From an uncultured Bacteroidales bacterium (GTDB lineage: Bacteria; Bacteroidota; Bacteroidia; Bacteroidales; UBA11471), in the NCBI GenBank assembly GCA_947625885.1, contig CANQQA010000007.1, positions 26,555 through 90,554 on the forward strand: a stretch of 64,000 nucleotides of DNA, given 5' to 3'. The notes beneath the pieces are model-generated. The model searched no databases. It saw nothing but the letters and a program-made list of their open reading frames with translations, and was not told the DNA's origin. Positions within the stretch are counted from its first letter, which is position 1. Each line of letters starts with the position of its first letter. Shown in pieces: positions 1 through 62,669 of this stretch. A program made the translations under genes and the position numbers.

Positions 1-879
1 GCCGGATACGATGTCGTATATTTGGGCGGCGGCGCCAGCCTGCAATTCTGCATGGTACCGTATAACCTGTTGAAAAAGAAAGCAGCTTATCTCGAAACCG
101 GCACATGGGCAGTAAATGCCATAAAAGAAGCCAAACTGTTCGGTGAAGTCGATGTAGTGGCTTCCTCCAAAGATGCCAACTTCACTTTCATACCCAAAGG
201 TTACACCGTACCCGACGATGCCGATTATTTCCATATCACCACGAACAATACCATTTTCGGAACGGAAATGCGTTACGACCCCGACGTGAAAGTGCCTTTG
301 GTAGCCGATATGTCGTCCGATATCTTCTCCCGCCCCATCGACGTGTCGAAATACGACATCATCTATGCCGGTGCACAGAAAAACCTCGCACCTGCCGGCG
401 TAACCATCGCCATCGTGCGCGAAGATGCGCTGGGTAAGGTGGAACGCGCCATACCCACGATGCTCGACTACCGCACGCACATCAAGAAAGGCTCGATGTT
501 TAACACGCCTCCCTGTCTGCCGGTATTCGCCGCATTGCAGACCCTCAGATACTACAAAGAGTTGGGCGGCGTGAAAGTGCTCGAAAAGATGAACCTTGAA
601 AAGGCTGCTATCCTCTACGACGAAATCGACCGCAACAAACTGTTCAGAGGCACGGTCGTACCCGAAGACCGCTCTATCATGAACGTATGTTTCGTGATGA
701 ACGACGAGTACAAAGAGCTGGAAGAAGAATTTGCCCAATTCGCTTCGAGCAAGGGAATGGTGGGCATCAAGGGACACCGCTCGGTGGGCGGATTCCGCGC
801 TTCGCTCTACAACGCCATGCCCAAGTCGAGCGTAGAGGCTCTCATCGCCACCATGCAGGAATTTGAGAAAAACCATTAA
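1..879 (+). CDS. serC: phosphoserine aminotransferase (5'-truncated by window edge)
   Basis: [21 protein letters not shown] (PLP lysine), [15 protein letters not shown] motifs; frame open from base 1. Confidence 0.96.
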
Positions 880-38325: not shown

Positions 38326-39063
38326 CTATTCTGCCTTTATATTGTACTTTATGAGCGCATCTTCAATGTGTTTTGATATATCTATACTCATTCTTGTTTT
38401 TGTATTTAAATCAGATAAATTAGAGTAAACGACTACGAGTCCATCTACTGAAGAATTATATGTAACACCAACGCCATAATCAACTTTGGGGTCAGCTATT
38501 TCTCCATAAAAATGAGCAAAAGATTTCGTATTCATATCTCCTTCTAACGTTAAATATCGCTCTGATAAAAAATTTTCCAACGAATAAGCGGCAGATAATT
38601 GGACAATTACACAACTTGACCTCAGTTTCCCGTTTTCAAACATATACCAATAATATGGCGCATTTTCATTACTGCTTTTGTATATTAGATATTCCAAATC
38701 AGAGATATACGGAGTACCATAACGGCTCCTTATCGTTTCCATCGATGCGCCAAAGTCCAAACAGGGTTCTTCATAAAGACTATATTTGGGTATCACTTCT
38801 ACATTGAATGATAGTCCGTGATCAGATTCTCGAACAATCGTTTTTCCCACAAATTGACTTTCAATTACTCCATTTGAAATCATTGCGACAAACTCGTTGT
38901 CAGACGACCAATTAAGATTGCTTACATTCACGCCTTGTATATTCTCGTTTTGAGAATGATACAAGGTGTAGGACATTTTAGATAACGATACATCTTCCTC
39001 GTTTTTGGAACACGACGCCATTGTAACAGCAGTTGCAATAGCCCAAAAGAACATTTTTTTCAT
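38326..39063 (-). CDS. hypothetical lipoprotein (AT-rich), N-terminal Ig-like (Big_2-like) segment
   Basis: Lipobox TMAS-C followed by SKNEED; WSSDNEFVA motif. Confidence 0.78.
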   Translation of the reverse strand: MKKMFFWAIATAVTMASCSKNEEDVSLSKMSYTLYHSQNENIQGVNVSNLNWSSDNEFVAMISNGVIESQFVGKTIVRESDHGLSFNVEVIPKYSLYEEPCLDFGASMETIRSRYGTPYISDLEYLIYKSSNENAPYYWYMFENGKLRSSCVIVQLSAAYSLENFLSERYLTLEGDMNTKSFAHFYGEIADPKVDYGVGVTYNSSVDGLVVVYSNLSDLNTKTRMSIDISKHIEDALIKYNIKAE

Positions 39064-39116
39064 TGTTAATTATTTATATGTTTTGTGCAATAGTGCCTCA
39101 CACTGCAACACACGCA

Positions 39117-39275
39117 CAAAAAACGTGAGTTGGCTCATAGTATCAGAGGTACTGCCATACCCACGCAACATACAAGCACAACCCACGCTATAACATGGGC
39201 GCTTTGTGCTTATTGATCCTTGTTGCGTTTGAAAATTGGCAGTTTTCTGATACAAGTTCAATAGCAAAAACGCTA
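39117..39275 (-). ncRNA. candidate structured 5' leader RNA, copy 1
   Basis: Five nested stems with G-U pairs on the sense strand; lies between a -7 box and the lipoprotein start; homologous to 59801-60055. Confidence 0.65.
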
Positions 39276-39314
39276 TTCTATGTAAAAAGTGTACCACCCT
39301 CCGGCAGTACAGCA

Positions 39315-39322
39315 CAAATATA
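39315..39322 (-). promoter_or_regulatory. -7 promoter box upstream of leader copy 1
   Basis: TATATTTG on minus strand. Confidence 0.6.
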
Positions 39323-39437
39323 GCGATATTTTTTTACGGCAAAAAGGATTGTATTAATTTTGTAATTACGCTTTTATAAAAAAGCGCGTGTGTTTTTCAC
39401 GAAAAAATCTTATTTTTGTTTGACAGAATAACCGATT

Positions 39438-40184
39438 ATGAATCGCATCGTCATCATGGGAGCCACTTCGGGCATCGGCATGGAAGTGGCGAAACTGTGC
39501 ATCGCCGCCGGCTGGCATGTGGGCGTGGCAGGTCGCCGCACCGAGCTGCTGGAGCCGCTGCGCGCCGCAGCACCCGACCGTGTAGTTACTGCCAGCATCG
39601 ATGTTACCGCCGAAAATGCGCCGGAAAAACTGTCGCAACTCGTCGAGGCGTTGGGTGGCATGGATATTTACCTTCATGTGTCGGGTATCGGGAAACAGAA
39701 TTTAGAGCTCGACCCCGCACCCGAAATACGCACGGTCGAGACCAACGCCACCGGCTTCACCCGCATGGTAACGGCGGCATTCGGCTACTTCGCCCGACAA
39801 GGGCGCGGACACATCGCTGCCGTAACGTCGATTGCCGGCACGAAAGGATTGGGCGCGGCAGCGGCATACTCGGCTACGAAAGGGTTTCAAAACATCTACC
39901 TCGACGCGCTGGCTCAACTCGCCCGTATGAGAAAACTGAAAATCGCTTTTACCGACATTCGTCCGGGATTCGTGGCGACCGACCTGCTCGACCAAAAGCA
40001 CCGCTACCCGATGTTGATGCCCGTAGAACCGATTGCCTGTAAAATATTTTCGGCAATAAAACATCGGCGGCGGCGCATCGTCATCGACCGACGCTACGCT
40101 GTGCTTACTTTTTTCTGGCGGCTTCTCCCTGCCTGCCTGTGGGAACGCCTACCGGTAAAAAGCAAAGTCCTAAAAAAGAAATAA
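39438..40184 (+). CDS. short-chain dehydrogenase/reductase
   Basis: MGATSGIG, YSATK (YxxxK), IRPGFVAT. Confidence 0.92.
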   Translation: MNRIVIMGATSGIGMEVAKLCIAAGWHVGVAGRRTELLEPLRAAAPDRVVTASIDVTAENAPEKLSQLVEALGGMDIYLHVSGIGKQNLELDPAPEIRTVETNATGFTRMVTAAFGYFARQGRGHIAAVTSIAGTKGLGAAAAYSATKGFQNIYLDALAQLARMRKLKIAFTDIRPGFVATDLLDQKHRYPMLMPVEPIACKIFSAIKHRRRRIVIDRRYAVLTFFWRLLPACLWERLPVKSKVLKKK

Positions 40185-59800: not shown

Positions 59801-60055
59801 AAAGCGTTTACTTGACGTTTTGTTCTTGATATACAGAAATTCTCGCAAAATTTCATTTGGAGTCAAGGATAAAGCAACGGTAGATGCCCGTGGATATGTA
59901 ATAGTTTATTTTTTCGACCGCGTATTTCGGGAGAAATGGCGTCGAAACTGTTGCATATATAAGCGTGGGCTTCTGCGTTGCCGTCCAACTCCAAAAGGCA
60001 ATGCGAGAAGCCTCTGTATGAAGGACAGCAACAGGTACAGATTCCTACGCTTTTC
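59801..60055 (+). ncRNA. candidate structured 5' leader RNA, copy 2
   Basis: About 190-nt nested hairpin (59831-60019) with sense-strand G-U pairs; same loop motifs as copy 1 at 39117-39275. Confidence 0.65.
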
Positions 60056-60108
60056 GTTTAATAATAAATCGCCAACGAGGGGATGACCGCGGCAGGAGAA
60101 TACAAAAA

Positions 60109-60405
60109 ATGAACGAAAATTTACAAGCATTAATCCAAAATGTCTGTTCTGGATTTCCTACATACGATGTGGGGGTGAGCAATGTATTCGATCAGCGTAG
60201 ATTTGTTAGAATGGTTCACTATGCATGGAAACATGAAATTGGATTCCATCCAGACATGTTCAAAAACGCCCTAATGAAGACCGACTTATTTCATTCTCTT
60301 TCAGAAAACGAAATCGAAACTAAAGCATCCGAACTTTGTCTACAGGCTGACTTCGCAAAGTCAATGTTCCACGCTGCGTTTGACCTTGAAAATCTTACAA
60401 TCTGA
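60109..60405 (+). CDS. hypothetical protein (98 aa)
   Basis: ATG after an A-rich stretch, protein-like composition, 5 nt before the next gene; no family recognised. Confidence 0.7.
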   Translation: MNENLQALIQNVCSGFPTYDVGVSNVFDQRRFVRMVHYAWKHEIGFHPDMFKNALMKTDLFHSLSENEIETKASELCLQADFAKSMFHAAFDLENLTI

Positions 60406-60410
60406 TAATC

Positions 60411-62669
60411 ATGAAAACAACACTTCAAAAACTTGGGATACTGGCAGCGATGCTGCCGGTATCCCTGTGCGCTTCGGCGTATGACTTCGTGGCAGACGGC
60501 ATTGCCTACAAGATAACATCATTTACAGAGTTCGAATGTTCGGTAGTCGCCAACGACAGCAGCTACCGAGGCGATATTACAATCCCCGAAACCGTCTCTT
60601 TCAACGGCAGAACATTGACCGTCAAATCCATCGGAGACGAAGCCTTTTATCAGGACACAGCTCTGACATCGGTAACGATTCCCGCAACCGTTACAACGAT
60701 AGGGGACTATGTTTTCTGCGAATGCGTCAATCTCCAAACGGTAGCGCTTCCGGACGGTTTAACCGATATAAGCAGCTCCACTTTCTACGGATGTTCTTCG
60801 ATAGAAAGCATCGAACTGCCGGCATCGTTAACGGAAATAGGCGATCTTTGCTTTTCAGATTGTACCGCCCTGTCGAAAATCGAACTGCCGGCGGCAGTAT
60901 CGGAACTTCCATATGGATGTTTTAGCGGCTGTTCCAATCTGAAATATATGAACTTGGCAAACGTTGAAACAATTGGGGATTACGCATTTTCCGGTTGTAC
61001 TAATCTCGCCGAAGTGAAATTCGGGGACAAATTGCACTCTATTGAAAGATACGCCTTTCAGGCGTGCGGATTCGAGGAGTTCACGATTCCGAATAGCGTT
61101 ACTTCGATAGATTCCTATATATTAGAGGGCTGCGATAAATTGCAATCTTTTACACTGGGCAACGGTATTACGGAGATAAATAAGGATAATAATCCGATAT
61201 CCGGTTGTACCAATGTCAAGAAATTCATCATTGCAGACGGATCAGAATCTTTGACGTTTTTTGATGACGCCATATATAGAAGCGCCCCTTTTGAATATGT
61301 GTACATAGGTAGAGATATGGTTTCAAAAACTAAATACGGGATTCCGTGTTATGATCCTCCTTTTTATGATAACACGCATATAAAAACCGTCGAAATCGGG
61401 GAATTTGTAACAGACCTCCCTTGCTCCGGGAATTTTCTATATTATGGATTTTTTGAAAATTGTACCTCGCTCGATTCGATTAAAATTCAGGGTCTGCCAA
61501 CTATTCACTCTGACTTTGCAGCAGGGGACACCGCCCTTAAATACGTAGAAATTTCAAATAAAACGACGAAAATAGATTACAGAGCATTTTCCGGCTGCTC
61601 CTCTCTCGAAACAATCGTATTAAAAGCCCTAACGCCCCCGACTTATTATTACGGTTTCACTTCTGATCTATATCTCAATTGTCGGCTGCTTATTCCCGAA
61701 GGAACAGAGGCATTGTATAAAAATGCTTCGCCGTGGAACAATTTCTGGAATATCGTTGAAAGCCCGGAATGTTTTTCGGAATTTACGGTAGGAGACCTGA
61801 AATACACAATCATTACGGGAAATGAAGTCAGCGTTTCGATAAACGATTCAACCGGAAAACAGAACGTTCAGATTCCCTCGCAAGTCGAATATAATTCAAC
61901 GGTTTACAACGTCGTTTCCATAGCCGGAGAGGGTTTTGCAAATTCGACGGAATTGACGGCTATATCCCTTCCAAGCAGCATTAAGCGAATTGGGGAAAAT
62001 GCTTTTCAGGGGTGCGACAATCTCAATGTCGTCATTTCAAAAAATCCGGAGGCACCGATTACTTTCAAAGAAGTTTTCTCTCCGAATATCTATGAAACGG
62101 CGACCCTGTTTCTTCCCAATGGCAGAGAATCTTCATACGCAGCAGATACATATTGGAGCCTGTTCAAGAATATACGCCAATCGGAACTTGTTCCGATCGA
62201 TTCATTGAAATTCGAGGAGAAAGAACTGGCAATTAATCTGAACGAAAGCAAACAGTTGGTGCCGCATATCTATCCCGACAGCGCGTCCATTCAAAAACTC
62301 AAATGGACTTCTTCCGCCCCCGACATCGTATCGGTGGCAGATGACGGCACTATCGCCTCGAATACCCAAAAAGGCGAAGCGACTATCACGGCAACGACAA
62401 CCGACGGCACCAATATCTCCGACTCCATAATCGTCAAAGTCGGAACGGAAGCCGGTATCGGAGAGGTAATTTCAGAGAATGCAACCATCAGCGTTTCGGC
62501 AGAAAACAATACGATTGTCATAACGGAAAAACTCGCGGAACAAATCGTAAATGTGTACGACATTCAAGGGCGGCTCATCGCCACCACTACCCAAGACGTT
62601 ATAAAAAATCTTTCATCGGGATTTTATATCGTATCTGTCGCCGGTAAAACATTCAAAATTACTATTTAG
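60411..62669 (+). CDS. BspA-like leucine-rich repeat surface protein with Ig-like domain and probable T9SS C-terminal signal
   Basis: Signal peptide (ASA-YDF); LxxVxLPxxLxxIxxxxFxxC repeats; WTSSAPDIVSV (Big_2-like); C-terminal VYDIQGR..GFYIV..KITI. Confidence 0.9.
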   Translation: MKTTLQKLGILAAMLPVSLCASAYDFVADGIAYKITSFTEFECSVVANDSSYRGDITIPETVSFNGRTLTVKSIGDEAFYQDTALTSVTIPATVTTIGDYVFCECVNLQTVALPDGLTDISSSTFYGCSSIESIELPASLTEIGDLCFSDCTALSKIELPAAVSELPYGCFSGCSNLKYMNLANVETIGDYAFSGCTNLAEVKFGDKLHSIERYAFQACGFEEFTIPNSVTSIDSYILEGCDKLQSFTLGNGITEINKDNNPISGCTNVKKFIIADGSESLTFFDDAIYRSAPFEYVYIGRDMVSKTKYGIPCYDPPFYDNTHIKTVEIGEFVTDLPCSGNFLYYGFFENCTSLDSIKIQGLPTIHSDFAAGDTALKYVEISNKTTKIDYRAFSGCSSLETIVLKALTPPTYYYGFTSDLYLNCRLLIPEGTEALYKNASPWNNFWNIVESPECFSEFTVGDLKYTIITGNEVSVSINDSTGKQNVQIPSQVEYNSTVYNVVSIAGEGFANSTELTAISLPSSIKRIGENAFQGCDNLNVVISKNPEAPITFKEVFSPNIYETATLFLPNGRESSYAADTYWSLFKNIRQSELVPIDSLKFEEKELAINLNESKQLVPHIYPDSASIQKLKWTSSAPDIVSVADDGTIASNTQKGEATITATTTDGTNISDSIIVKVGTEAGIGEVISENATISVSAENNTIVITEKLAEQIVNVYDIQGRLIATTTQDVIKNLSSGFYIVSVAGKTFKITI

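Follow-up and report, generated by a model that had tools for sequence, protein, structure and literature searches.

A multicopy leader RNA of Bacteroidota with two exclusive folds, a candidate transcription attenuator before genes of secreted and surface proteins

Introduction

The stretch of 64,000 nucleotides (nt) of an uncultured Bacteroidales bacterium that was analysed here (hereafter the window) carries on its minus strand, in front of the gene of a predicted lipoprotein, a structured RNA element built as a rod of five stems. This leader RNA belongs to a widespread family which, judging from sequence comparison and folding models, probably switches genes of secreted and surface proteins on and off. 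The reading that we favour, and hold with somewhat better than even confidence, is that the element is a new four-segment transcription attenuator. Two sets of helices exist in the predicted folds, and both have been kept by copy-specific complementary changes among 92 copies of the family; a run of uridines (U-run) is conserved, and the spacing to the following open reading frame (ORF) is fixed.

The Rod and Its Covariation

The rod, which we call state A and regard as the antiterminator of the system, occupies positions 39140..39253(-) of the window. It consists of P1 (39253-39246/39147-39140, GUAUCAGA/UCUGAUAC), P2 (39243-39237/39157-39151, ACUGCCA/UGGCAGU), P3 (39228-39221/39170-39163, ACGCAACA/UGUUGCGU), P4 (39213-39204/39181-39172, AUAAGCACAA/UUGUGCUUGU) and P5 (39199-39193/39188-39182, CCCAUGU-UAUA-GCGUGGG), the last being closed by the loop UAUA. 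The original prediction had described such a five-stem rod on the minus strand, and all five stems hold when checked pair by pair, three of the pairs being U-G wobbles. The rod is also the minimum free energy (MFE) fold given by RNAfold for 39100-39290(-), at -69.3 kcal/mol against -48.4 +/- 3.9 kcal/mol for 200 dinucleotide shuffles (z = -5.35), none of which was equally stable.

A search of the element's own genome (G000) with BLASTN returned a diverged copy on another contig, C2 (E = 0.008), which precedes a small secreted protein. The window copy and the C2 copy share 75% of their columns and show 12 compensatory pairs in a model-free comparison by MAFFT and RNAalifold. The same pattern is seen on a larger scale in A8, the covariance-model based alignment of 92 copies, in which 96.7% of the 3502 pair cells hold standard pairs (67.9 +/- 0.5% when shuffled), 39 of the 40 rod pairs show changes on both sides, and double-change cells number 937 against 233 in the shuffled alignment. 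The covariation score of A8 is 0.717, compared with 0.183 after shuffling and no more than 0.063 once the 3' partners had been moved along by 1-3 columns. P2 is paired in 99.8% of cells, with compensatory changes at all seven of its seven pairs, and an alignment of 33 copies gives the same covariation picture. Targeted tests were used instead of an all-against-all scan of column covariation, which was swamped by one-sided variation. By eye, the rod varies most at the base of P1.

The MFE fold of the window copy further includes P0, a small hairpin of the rod state at 39260..39277(-) with the sequence AAUAGC-GUUUUU-GCUAUU. Its family consensus is AAAGC-GUUA-GCUUU; the window and C2 copies have AUAGC/GCUAU in its place, and the pairing is kept.

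It had also been proposed that the structure belongs to an RNA of the sense strand, and two observations bear this out. At one pair of P5, U-G is the commonest type (62 of 92 copies), and in 87 of 92 copies the strand of the downstream gene gives the stabler rod, with a mean advantage of 6.4 kcal/mol; in the window the minus strand reaches -51.1 and the plus strand -43.6 kcal/mol, so that the minus strand is favoured by 7.5 kcal/mol. The structure is therefore read from the sense RNA.

A Second, Mutually Exclusive Fold

Conservation extends beyond the rod on both sides. Upstream lies a flank with the consensus AAAGCGUUAGCUUUUAUUCUUG, and 3' of P1 the consensus GGAUAAG-UACAGUYCCACGC forms a linker and a tail that ends ~21 nt from P1; ~26 nt beyond the U-run stands another conserved box, such as UGGGACUG. 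Together with letters of the rod, the flank, the linker and the tail can form a second set of helices, which we call state B.

In the window the flank constitutes segment 1 (39254..39273(-)), whose duplex energies mark it as complementary to J3/4, P4a and the start of P5a. It would be the base of an alternative 5' hairpin at 39199..39273(-), the putative anti-antiterminator, tipped by G-AAAA/UUUUC with the letters of P2a as loop; the letters of P0 double as segment 1 in this state. The alternative 3' hairpin at 39123..39188(-), the predicted terminator stem, is drawn from the fold and from the complementarity of P5b and tail. At its base P5b (GCGUGGG, 39188-39182) pairs with the tail (CUCACGU, 39129-39123), further in P4b and P3b pair with P1b and the linker, and the tip is GGGUA/UACCU with the letters of P2b as loop. 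The U-run of six U follows the tail directly at 39118..39123(-), CUCACG and UUUUUU together filling 39129-39118, and is the predicted release point of a terminated leader. In 82 of 92 copies, five or more U stand in a row within the 10 nt that follow the tail, and in 89 copies four or more do. The terminator-like end of the original prediction is thus retained as regards the U-run. Its proposed terminator stem, the hairpin UGAG-CCAA-CUCA of four base pairs (bp), is specific to this copy and not conserved in the family, and according to the folding models the terminator would instead be the long alternative hairpin in which the rod's 3' half is combined with linker and tail.

The pairings of state B were assessed by a duplex-energy test, in which a segment of each copy is paired with its own partner and with the partners of other copies, independently of any column alignment. 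The flank binds its own J3/4-P4a with -8.32 kcal/mol and that of other copies with -6.16 +/- 0.18 kcal/mol (z = -12.3, reached in 0 of 5000 permutations), and P5b prefers its own tail with z = -8.0. Two controls gave little, namely the flank with the downstream region (-5.74 own, -5.54 kcal/mol other; z = -1.3) and P5a with the downstream region (z = -1.0); the absolute energies of P5b:tail and P5a:downstream are distorted by one empty segment, and z-scores alone were used for these two. Counted by columns, P5b and tail have 6.58 of 7 positions paired against 6.42 +/- 0.024 in permuted sets (0 of 2000; 90 of the 92 copies, two being dropped for gaps). Furthermore, rare variants of P5b come with matching tails, as in GCGTGTG/CACACGC, CCGTGGG/TTCACGG, TCGTGGG/TTCACGA and ACGTGGG/CCCACGT.

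The inner parts of the two hairpins show the same tendency. Letters that lie in internal loops of the rod pair with one another around P2a and P2b to form the tip helices, 91.7% of which are paired compared with 85.7% after shuffling; double-change cells number 52 against 19.4, and the tip helix pair 226-240 is UA in 75 copies and CG in 8. The alternative pairings explain almost every conserved letter that the rod leaves unpaired. In a chimera test, the halves of the hairpins were swapped between copies (45 copies chosen at random from 90 usable ones). The 3' hairpin has -27.2 kcal/mol with its own halves and -23.7 +/- 0.46 kcal/mol when swapped, a cost of 3.5 kcal/mol (z = -7.5), and the corresponding values of the 5' hairpin are -17.2 and -14.5 +/- 0.40 kcal/mol, a cost of 2.7 kcal/mol (z = -6.8). 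Both hairpins of state B are therefore maintained copy by copy. When the tail:P5b helix was forced, each of the seven copies folded split into a pair of long hairpins, with the U-run at the end of the second; for the halves of the window copy folded alone, the predicted energies are -19.9 kcal/mol (5' hairpin) and -32.0 kcal/mol (3' hairpin).

The flank abuts P1 without a linker. By geometric reasoning, rather than by computation, its pairing with J3/4 therefore cannot coexist with P1-P3 and has to be an exclusive alternative to them; a pseudoknot of flank and J3/4 alongside the rod was considered and rejected on the same geometry.

The tail also has complementary partners 3' of the U-run, in the window GUGCGUGUGUUGC and GUGUGAG at 39097..39117(-), with a duplex energy of -11.2 kcal/mol. 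Duplexes of a tail with its own box reach -8 kcal/mol or lower in 58 of 92 copies, compared with 30.9 +/- 3.4 (at most 41) for shuffled partners, and tails paired with the region after the U-run have -9.18 kcal/mol in their own copy and -7.14 kcal/mol with other copies (z = -10.3). A hairpin around this box ('P6') seemed by eye to covary; it is not established, as no more than 10 of the 58 strong-duplex copies place the box in the loop of a local hairpin when folded.

A Two-State Model of Attenuation

In the order of transcription, the four segments of the proposed attenuator would be the flank (segment 1), J3/4 with P4a and P5a (segment 2), P5b with P4b (segment 3), and linker with tail (segment 4), followed by the U-run. 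In state A, pairing of segments 2 and 3 would complete the whole rod P1-P5 and leave the tail without a partner, so that polymerase would pass the U-run and the gene would be transcribed. After read-through, the tail may pair with the complementary box further downstream, and that box may have a role in the system. In state B, segment 1 would pair with 2 and segment 3 with 4, giving two hairpins, the second of which ends at the U-run and would serve as an intrinsic terminator that releases a short leader; the 1:2 hairpin, being made first, would act as an anti-antiterminator. We infer termination at the U-run and a regulated balance of the two folds from these patterns of conservation and from the models.

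Each part that such an attenuator needs has its counterpart in the element. For the terminator, these are a G+C-rich 3' hairpin that ends in GCGUGGG:YCCACGC and the U-run behind it; for the antiterminator, the same letters of P5b and P4b can pair either with P5a and P4a or with tail and linker. For the anti-antiterminator, there are the copy-specific complementarity of flank and J3/4-P4a, the result of the chimera test for the 5' hairpin, and the behaviour of nascent chains. Until P3b emerges, a growing chain has the 5' hairpin as its fold of lowest energy, in which P5a stays free and can seed P5. The end loops of state B are the two strands of P2, and hence a loop-loop contact could start the change from B to the rod, a route by which P2 may, on the model, initiate refolding.

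Several points weigh against this reading. Over 90 copies, the rod exceeds both hairpins together in stability by a mean of 12.6 kcal/mol, and state B approaches it to within 5 kcal/mol in only 3 of them; the terminator should therefore be rare at equilibrium, and a switch would need kinetics or a factor. For the window copy the totals are -54.4 kcal/mol for the two-hairpin state and -61.2 kcal/mol for the rod state. In favour of the reading, one (L047) of four full-length copies tried had state B as its minimum. RNAalifold found no consensus structure in a plain MAFFT alignment of the terminator hairpin, so the inner helices of the terminator are argued for by the chimera test and not by column covariation. 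P5b is nearly invariant, and the covariation at the base of the terminator therefore comes from a minority of copies; the columns of flank and J3/4 are 79.5% paired against 76.0 +/- 0.7% when shuffled, a modest excess. In addition, A7 and A8, being alignments fitted to the rod model, are biased in its favour. The conclusion on rod covariation is safe in spite of this, because the effect is large and was first seen in the 12 pairs of the model-free comparison. Finally, the genes downstream are diverse and suggest no single physiological signal, and none of the 92 copies has an ATG-started ORF of consistent position or frame that reaches the flank, nor is there a conserved leader peptide among them, which excludes classical ribosome-sensing attenuation.

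Given that the rod is stabler by ~13 kcal/mol and that the 5' hairpin is made first, our best guess is a factor or condition that holds the 5' hairpin or blocks the rod. Candidate triggers would be a PyrR-like binding protein, a small RNA or small molecule, or else temperature or the speed of polymerase. A bolder extension of the attenuator reading, which we regard as possible and rather doubtful, is that the element represents a new class of self-contained switch that would sense a cellular signal itself, through the conserved internal loops of the rod or through the loop-loop contact between its hairpins, and would place unrelated surface and secreted proteins, among them cargo of type IX secretion, BspA-type proteins with leucine-rich repeats and lipoproteins, and some defence genes under one control after initiation. 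The signal could then be a small molecule, a factor of envelope or secretion stress, or temperature, for instance, and the class would span Bacteroidota.

Distribution of the Family

Matches of the element were found by BLASTN in 7 of 61 relatives, including other families of the order, and those copies fold alike. Two covariance models were built, R1 from the window copy and a 98% identical relative, with the structure written by hand, and R2, rebuilt from 92 members; E-values of both are rough, as their calibration was shortened, and counts of copies and genomes are not independent because the sampled genomes are mutually related. At E <= 0.01, R1 detected the element in 43 of the 151 genomes examined from the order, and at E <= 0.001 in 13 of 151 drawn from the whole phylum. 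R2 detected it in 9 of 11 genomes of the genus and, at E <= 1e-8, in 34 of the 101 genomes sampled from the order, where a single genome has as many as 28 copies. In the genome of the window, R1 counted two copies, an under-count compared with the nine found by R2 at E <= 1e-8, to which R2 adds three weaker ones.

An exact 20-mer of the conserved flank occurs at more than 122 places in a collection of species-representative genomes, and the record titles among the matches listed include Alistipes, Tannerella, Paludibacter, Dysgonomonas, Draconibacterium, Odoribacter, Barnesiella, Lentimicrobiaceae, Pedobacter and others. Diverged copies were also seen in unannotated spacers on plasmids of Chryseobacterium shandongense and Rhizosphaericola mali. 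The label 'copy 1', given earlier to the element before the lipoprotein gene, was apt, in that the window holds a second, diverged and weaker leader copy at 59818-60059(+) (R2 32 bits, E = 7e-4), which has a large insertion at the tip of the rod and a rod fold with z = -8.0.

The element had not been recognised as a named riboswitch, and a covariance-model scan of the whole 64-kb window with Rfam 15 agrees, finding no family at its gathering score. Over 38900-39500 at E <= 10, the scan gave only seven matches of chance level, for example h2cR with 16.3 bits against a gathering score of 70. A sub-threshold match to salivarius-1 at 38932-38969(+), antisense inside the lipoprotein ORF (26.4 bits against a gathering score of 50, E = 0.0034), is most likely due to chance. 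Among 20 other members scanned at E <= 0.1, Rfam returned only the separate DUF805 motif in one copy (L060). Phage records showed nothing similar to the window copy or a consensus-like one, and full-text searches of a library of open-access and bioRxiv papers gave no description of the family, other papers or supplements being places that may hold one.

Some copies occur in same-strand pairs ~0.8-3 kb apart (G025:C295, G019:C416, G094:C66 and G016:C15 and, among the 20-mer matches listed, JAVBKX010000010.1 and JAIOSH010000174.1), each successive gene having its own leader. In L022, what appears by eye to be the 5' part of another copy lies ~70 nt after the first leader, with no ORF between. 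In the fragmented assemblies G052, G025 and G085, many copies are located 100-1500 nt from a contig end, likely because the genes behind them are repeated paralogous families with similar N-termini that break assemblies; similar N-termini are seen, for example, behind L043, L044, L056, L061 and L092.

Promoter and Downstream Genes

A promoter-like -7 box, TATATTTG, is located at 39315..39322(-), 50 nt upstream of the start of the conserved element. It fits TAnnTTTG, which we take to be the Bacteroidota -7 consensus, and the transcript is predicted to start a few bases downstream of it. The box claimed upstream of the element is thus a feature of the family as well, in which an exact TAnnTTTG occurs within 200 nt upstream in 62 of 92 copies, against 21 of 92 for the reverse-complement control, mostly 50-90 nt before the element with a mode at 60-80 nt.

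The gene behind the window copy (38326..39063(-)) is an ORF for a predicted lipoprotein of 245 amino acids (aa) that begins MKKMFFWAIATAVTMASC and has no Pfam family. Its start codon stands 41 nt past the end of the model, which fits the spacing in the family, as a same-strand ORF starts within 120 nt past the model end in 78 of 92 copies (median 45.5 nt, interquartile range (IQR) 40-56). The assignment of the element to the 5' leader of the lipoprotein gene is therefore well matched by the other copies. A crude rule finds a signal-peptide-like start in 60 of 87 first ORFs. Among 28 longer products searched with Pfam, type IX secretion system (T9SS) sorting domains, SprB repeats, BspA-type leucine-rich repeats (LRR), cohesin and CsgG were found, as well as a LytTR domain, a receiver domain, UbiA and an Mrr-ResIII enzyme; 16 of the 28, including the lipoprotein of the window, are without a Pfam family. 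Another copy precedes a ResIII enzyme.

Five copies of the window's genome (L113-L117, on contigs C32, C3, C25, C18 and C28 of G000) have nearly the same insertion, ~35-40 nt long, at the P5 tip and promoter regions that are likewise near-identical, and each precedes a paralogous surface protein, judged BspA-like by its N-terminus alone. They look like a subfamily that expanded recently through joint duplication of leader and gene.

Behind the second window copy lie an ORF of 98 aa without a family (60109..60405) and a BspA-type LRR/Big_2 protein of 752 aa (60411..62669) with a weak match to a T9SS sorting domain. The neighbours of the first window copy are a dehydrogenase-like ORF and seryl-tRNA synthetase, and no recombinase adjoins it.

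In a minority of copies (for example L016, L017, L008, L023, L024 and L060), a recurring motif ATGACATAA/G is found ~33-45 nt upstream. It contains a two-codon mini-ORF, ATG-ACA-stop (Met-Thr-stop), the only ATG-started ORF that recurs; TGACATA is present in 15 of the 92 copies, the window copy not being one of them.

Competing Explanations

Of the explanations that compete with an attenuator, the one that survives best, unlikely as we consider it, is a small RNA transcribed from its own promoter and ended at the U-run, which would act on other transcripts or on a protein, the downstream gene being simply a neighbour or being served by read-through. A promoter box and a U-run of its own are what such a gene would have, the end loops and internal loops are conserved and could be seeds, and the genes downstream are diverse; the many copies per genome, up to 28, also recall paralogous families of Bacteroides such as FopS (PMC11697453). 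A free-standing small-RNA gene, however, needs neither the tight spacing to a same-strand start codon (78 of 92 within 120 nt, IQR 40-56) nor conservation past the U-run, where the tail-complementary box is copy-specific, and both count against it. Moreover, the most stable fold has no hairpin beside the U-run, so that efficient ending would not be the default. The two explanations overlap partly, as an attenuator may also release an active small RNA.

A shade less probable still is a constitutive structural leader, in which the rod would serve as a double-stranded processing site, for instance for RNase III, an mRNA stabiliser or a tuner of translation, and the alternative pairings would be intermediates on the folding path or remnants of an internal duplication. 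At equilibrium the rod clearly prevails, by ~13 kcal/mol, and it has the strongest covariation, and the tail pairs with its box in the read-through transcript, a pairing that is relevant only after read-through. By eye, linker and tail resemble a copy of the P4a-P5a strand, and the flank resembles a copy of P5b-P4b. Leftover duplicates, however, would not retain copy-specific complementarity; in 82 of 92 copies a U-run directly adjoins the alternative hairpin's 3' strand, and the conserved letters of the internal loops pair mutually only in state B.

A DNA feature, such as a miniature inverted-repeat transposable element (MITE), a cruciform or an attC-like single-strand hairpin recombination site with diverse cassettes, is very improbable, since the long, imperfect and multicopy inverted repeat, its structure kept better than its sequence, its place before diverse and mostly uncharacterised accessory genes (16 of 28 without a Pfam family), the same-strand copy pairs 1-3 kb apart and the plasmid copies, all of which would suit it, are opposed by the strand-specific wobbles (U-G in 62 of 92 copies at one pair), the greater stability of the sense strand (87 of 92), the fixed orientation and ORF spacing, the promoter box, a second fold ending in a U-run that would be meaningless for a DNA site, copies of one genome that have diverged (two of them to 75% column identity) with compensatory changes, unlike recently moved MITEs, and the lack of a recombinase beside the window copy. 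The near-identical copies without fixed relation to genes that would mark a MITE are not what these comparisons show, target-site duplications not having been searched for. An attC site would be expected to have conserved cores at the hairpin base and to form arrays beside an integrase.

Significance

Bacteroidota dominate gut and oral communities and have unusual signals of transcription and translation, and to our knowledge few cis-acting regulatory RNAs are known in the phylum. The leader is present in about one third of the sampled genomes of the order, where it stands before genes of the cell surface, including T9SS cargo, adhesin-like proteins with BspA-type LRR, and lipoproteins. If it is a working attenuator, it would define a regulon that is invisible from protein-coding genes alone and would offer a direct handle on the co-regulation of accessory surface proteins. 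Should the bolder extension to a self-sensing switch hold as well, promoter, leader and start region would travel as a portable expression cassette before newly acquired genes. A rod of 40 bp that resolves into two hairpins with complementary loops would be unusual among attenuators and a clean model for co-transcriptional refolding. Furthermore, the covariance model could serve for annotating the element across genomes and metagenomes by the thousand.

Comparison with Known Systems

The FopS/GibS RNAs of Bacteroides thetaiotaomicron, which are ~65-70 nt long and act in trans on susC mRNAs through a 5' seed, share with the element a multicopy RNA, the phylum, canonical promoters and ties to the surface or outer membrane (PMC11697453). 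The element differs in its ~230 nt from predicted start to U-run, in its rod and in its fixed distance before an ORF. Identity with FopS/GibS was rejected on size and architecture, by reference to that published description rather than to a sequence comparison (PMC11697453).

The DUF805 motif (RF03081) is likewise a cis-regulatory candidate in leaders of Bacteroidota. It is a distinct motif of 68 nt with two hairpins, has no match in the window and was found in one of 20 scanned members, L060, where it lies at 243-311(-) between the tail-complementary box and the start codon with 79.2 bits against a gathering score of 51.1. L060 thus shows two cis-regulatory modules in series before a lipoprotein-like ORF.

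Riboswitches with terminator/antiterminator platforms have in common with the element a cis-acting 5' leader, two exclusive folds of which one is a terminator, and covariation. The element differs from them in that it has no evident ligand pocket, no shared metabolic theme downstream and no Rfam match.

CopA/CopT and RNA I/RNA II are antisense pairs that kiss through their loops, and the fully complementary end loops of the element, 7 nt long, could nucleate a long duplex in a comparable way. In the element, both hairpins belong to one molecule, and a kissing step would be putative.

The closest likeness in logic is that to the three-hairpin pyr attenuators of Bacillus (PyrR) and the enteric trp leader, in which 1:2 and 3:4 pairing gives the terminator and 2:3 pairing the antiterminator. 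The element would share this four-segment logic, the 1:2 hairpin being made first as an anti-antiterminator. It has no leader peptide and so does not follow the trp mechanism, and no PyrR-like binding loop or partner is known for it. Its antiterminator, a rod of 40 bp, is unusually long, the end loops of its alternative hairpins are complementary to each other, and it occurs in many copies before unrelated genes rather than in one operon. By this comparison, the element belongs to neither the pyr nor the trp attenuators, while following, if our reading holds, a logic that is alike.

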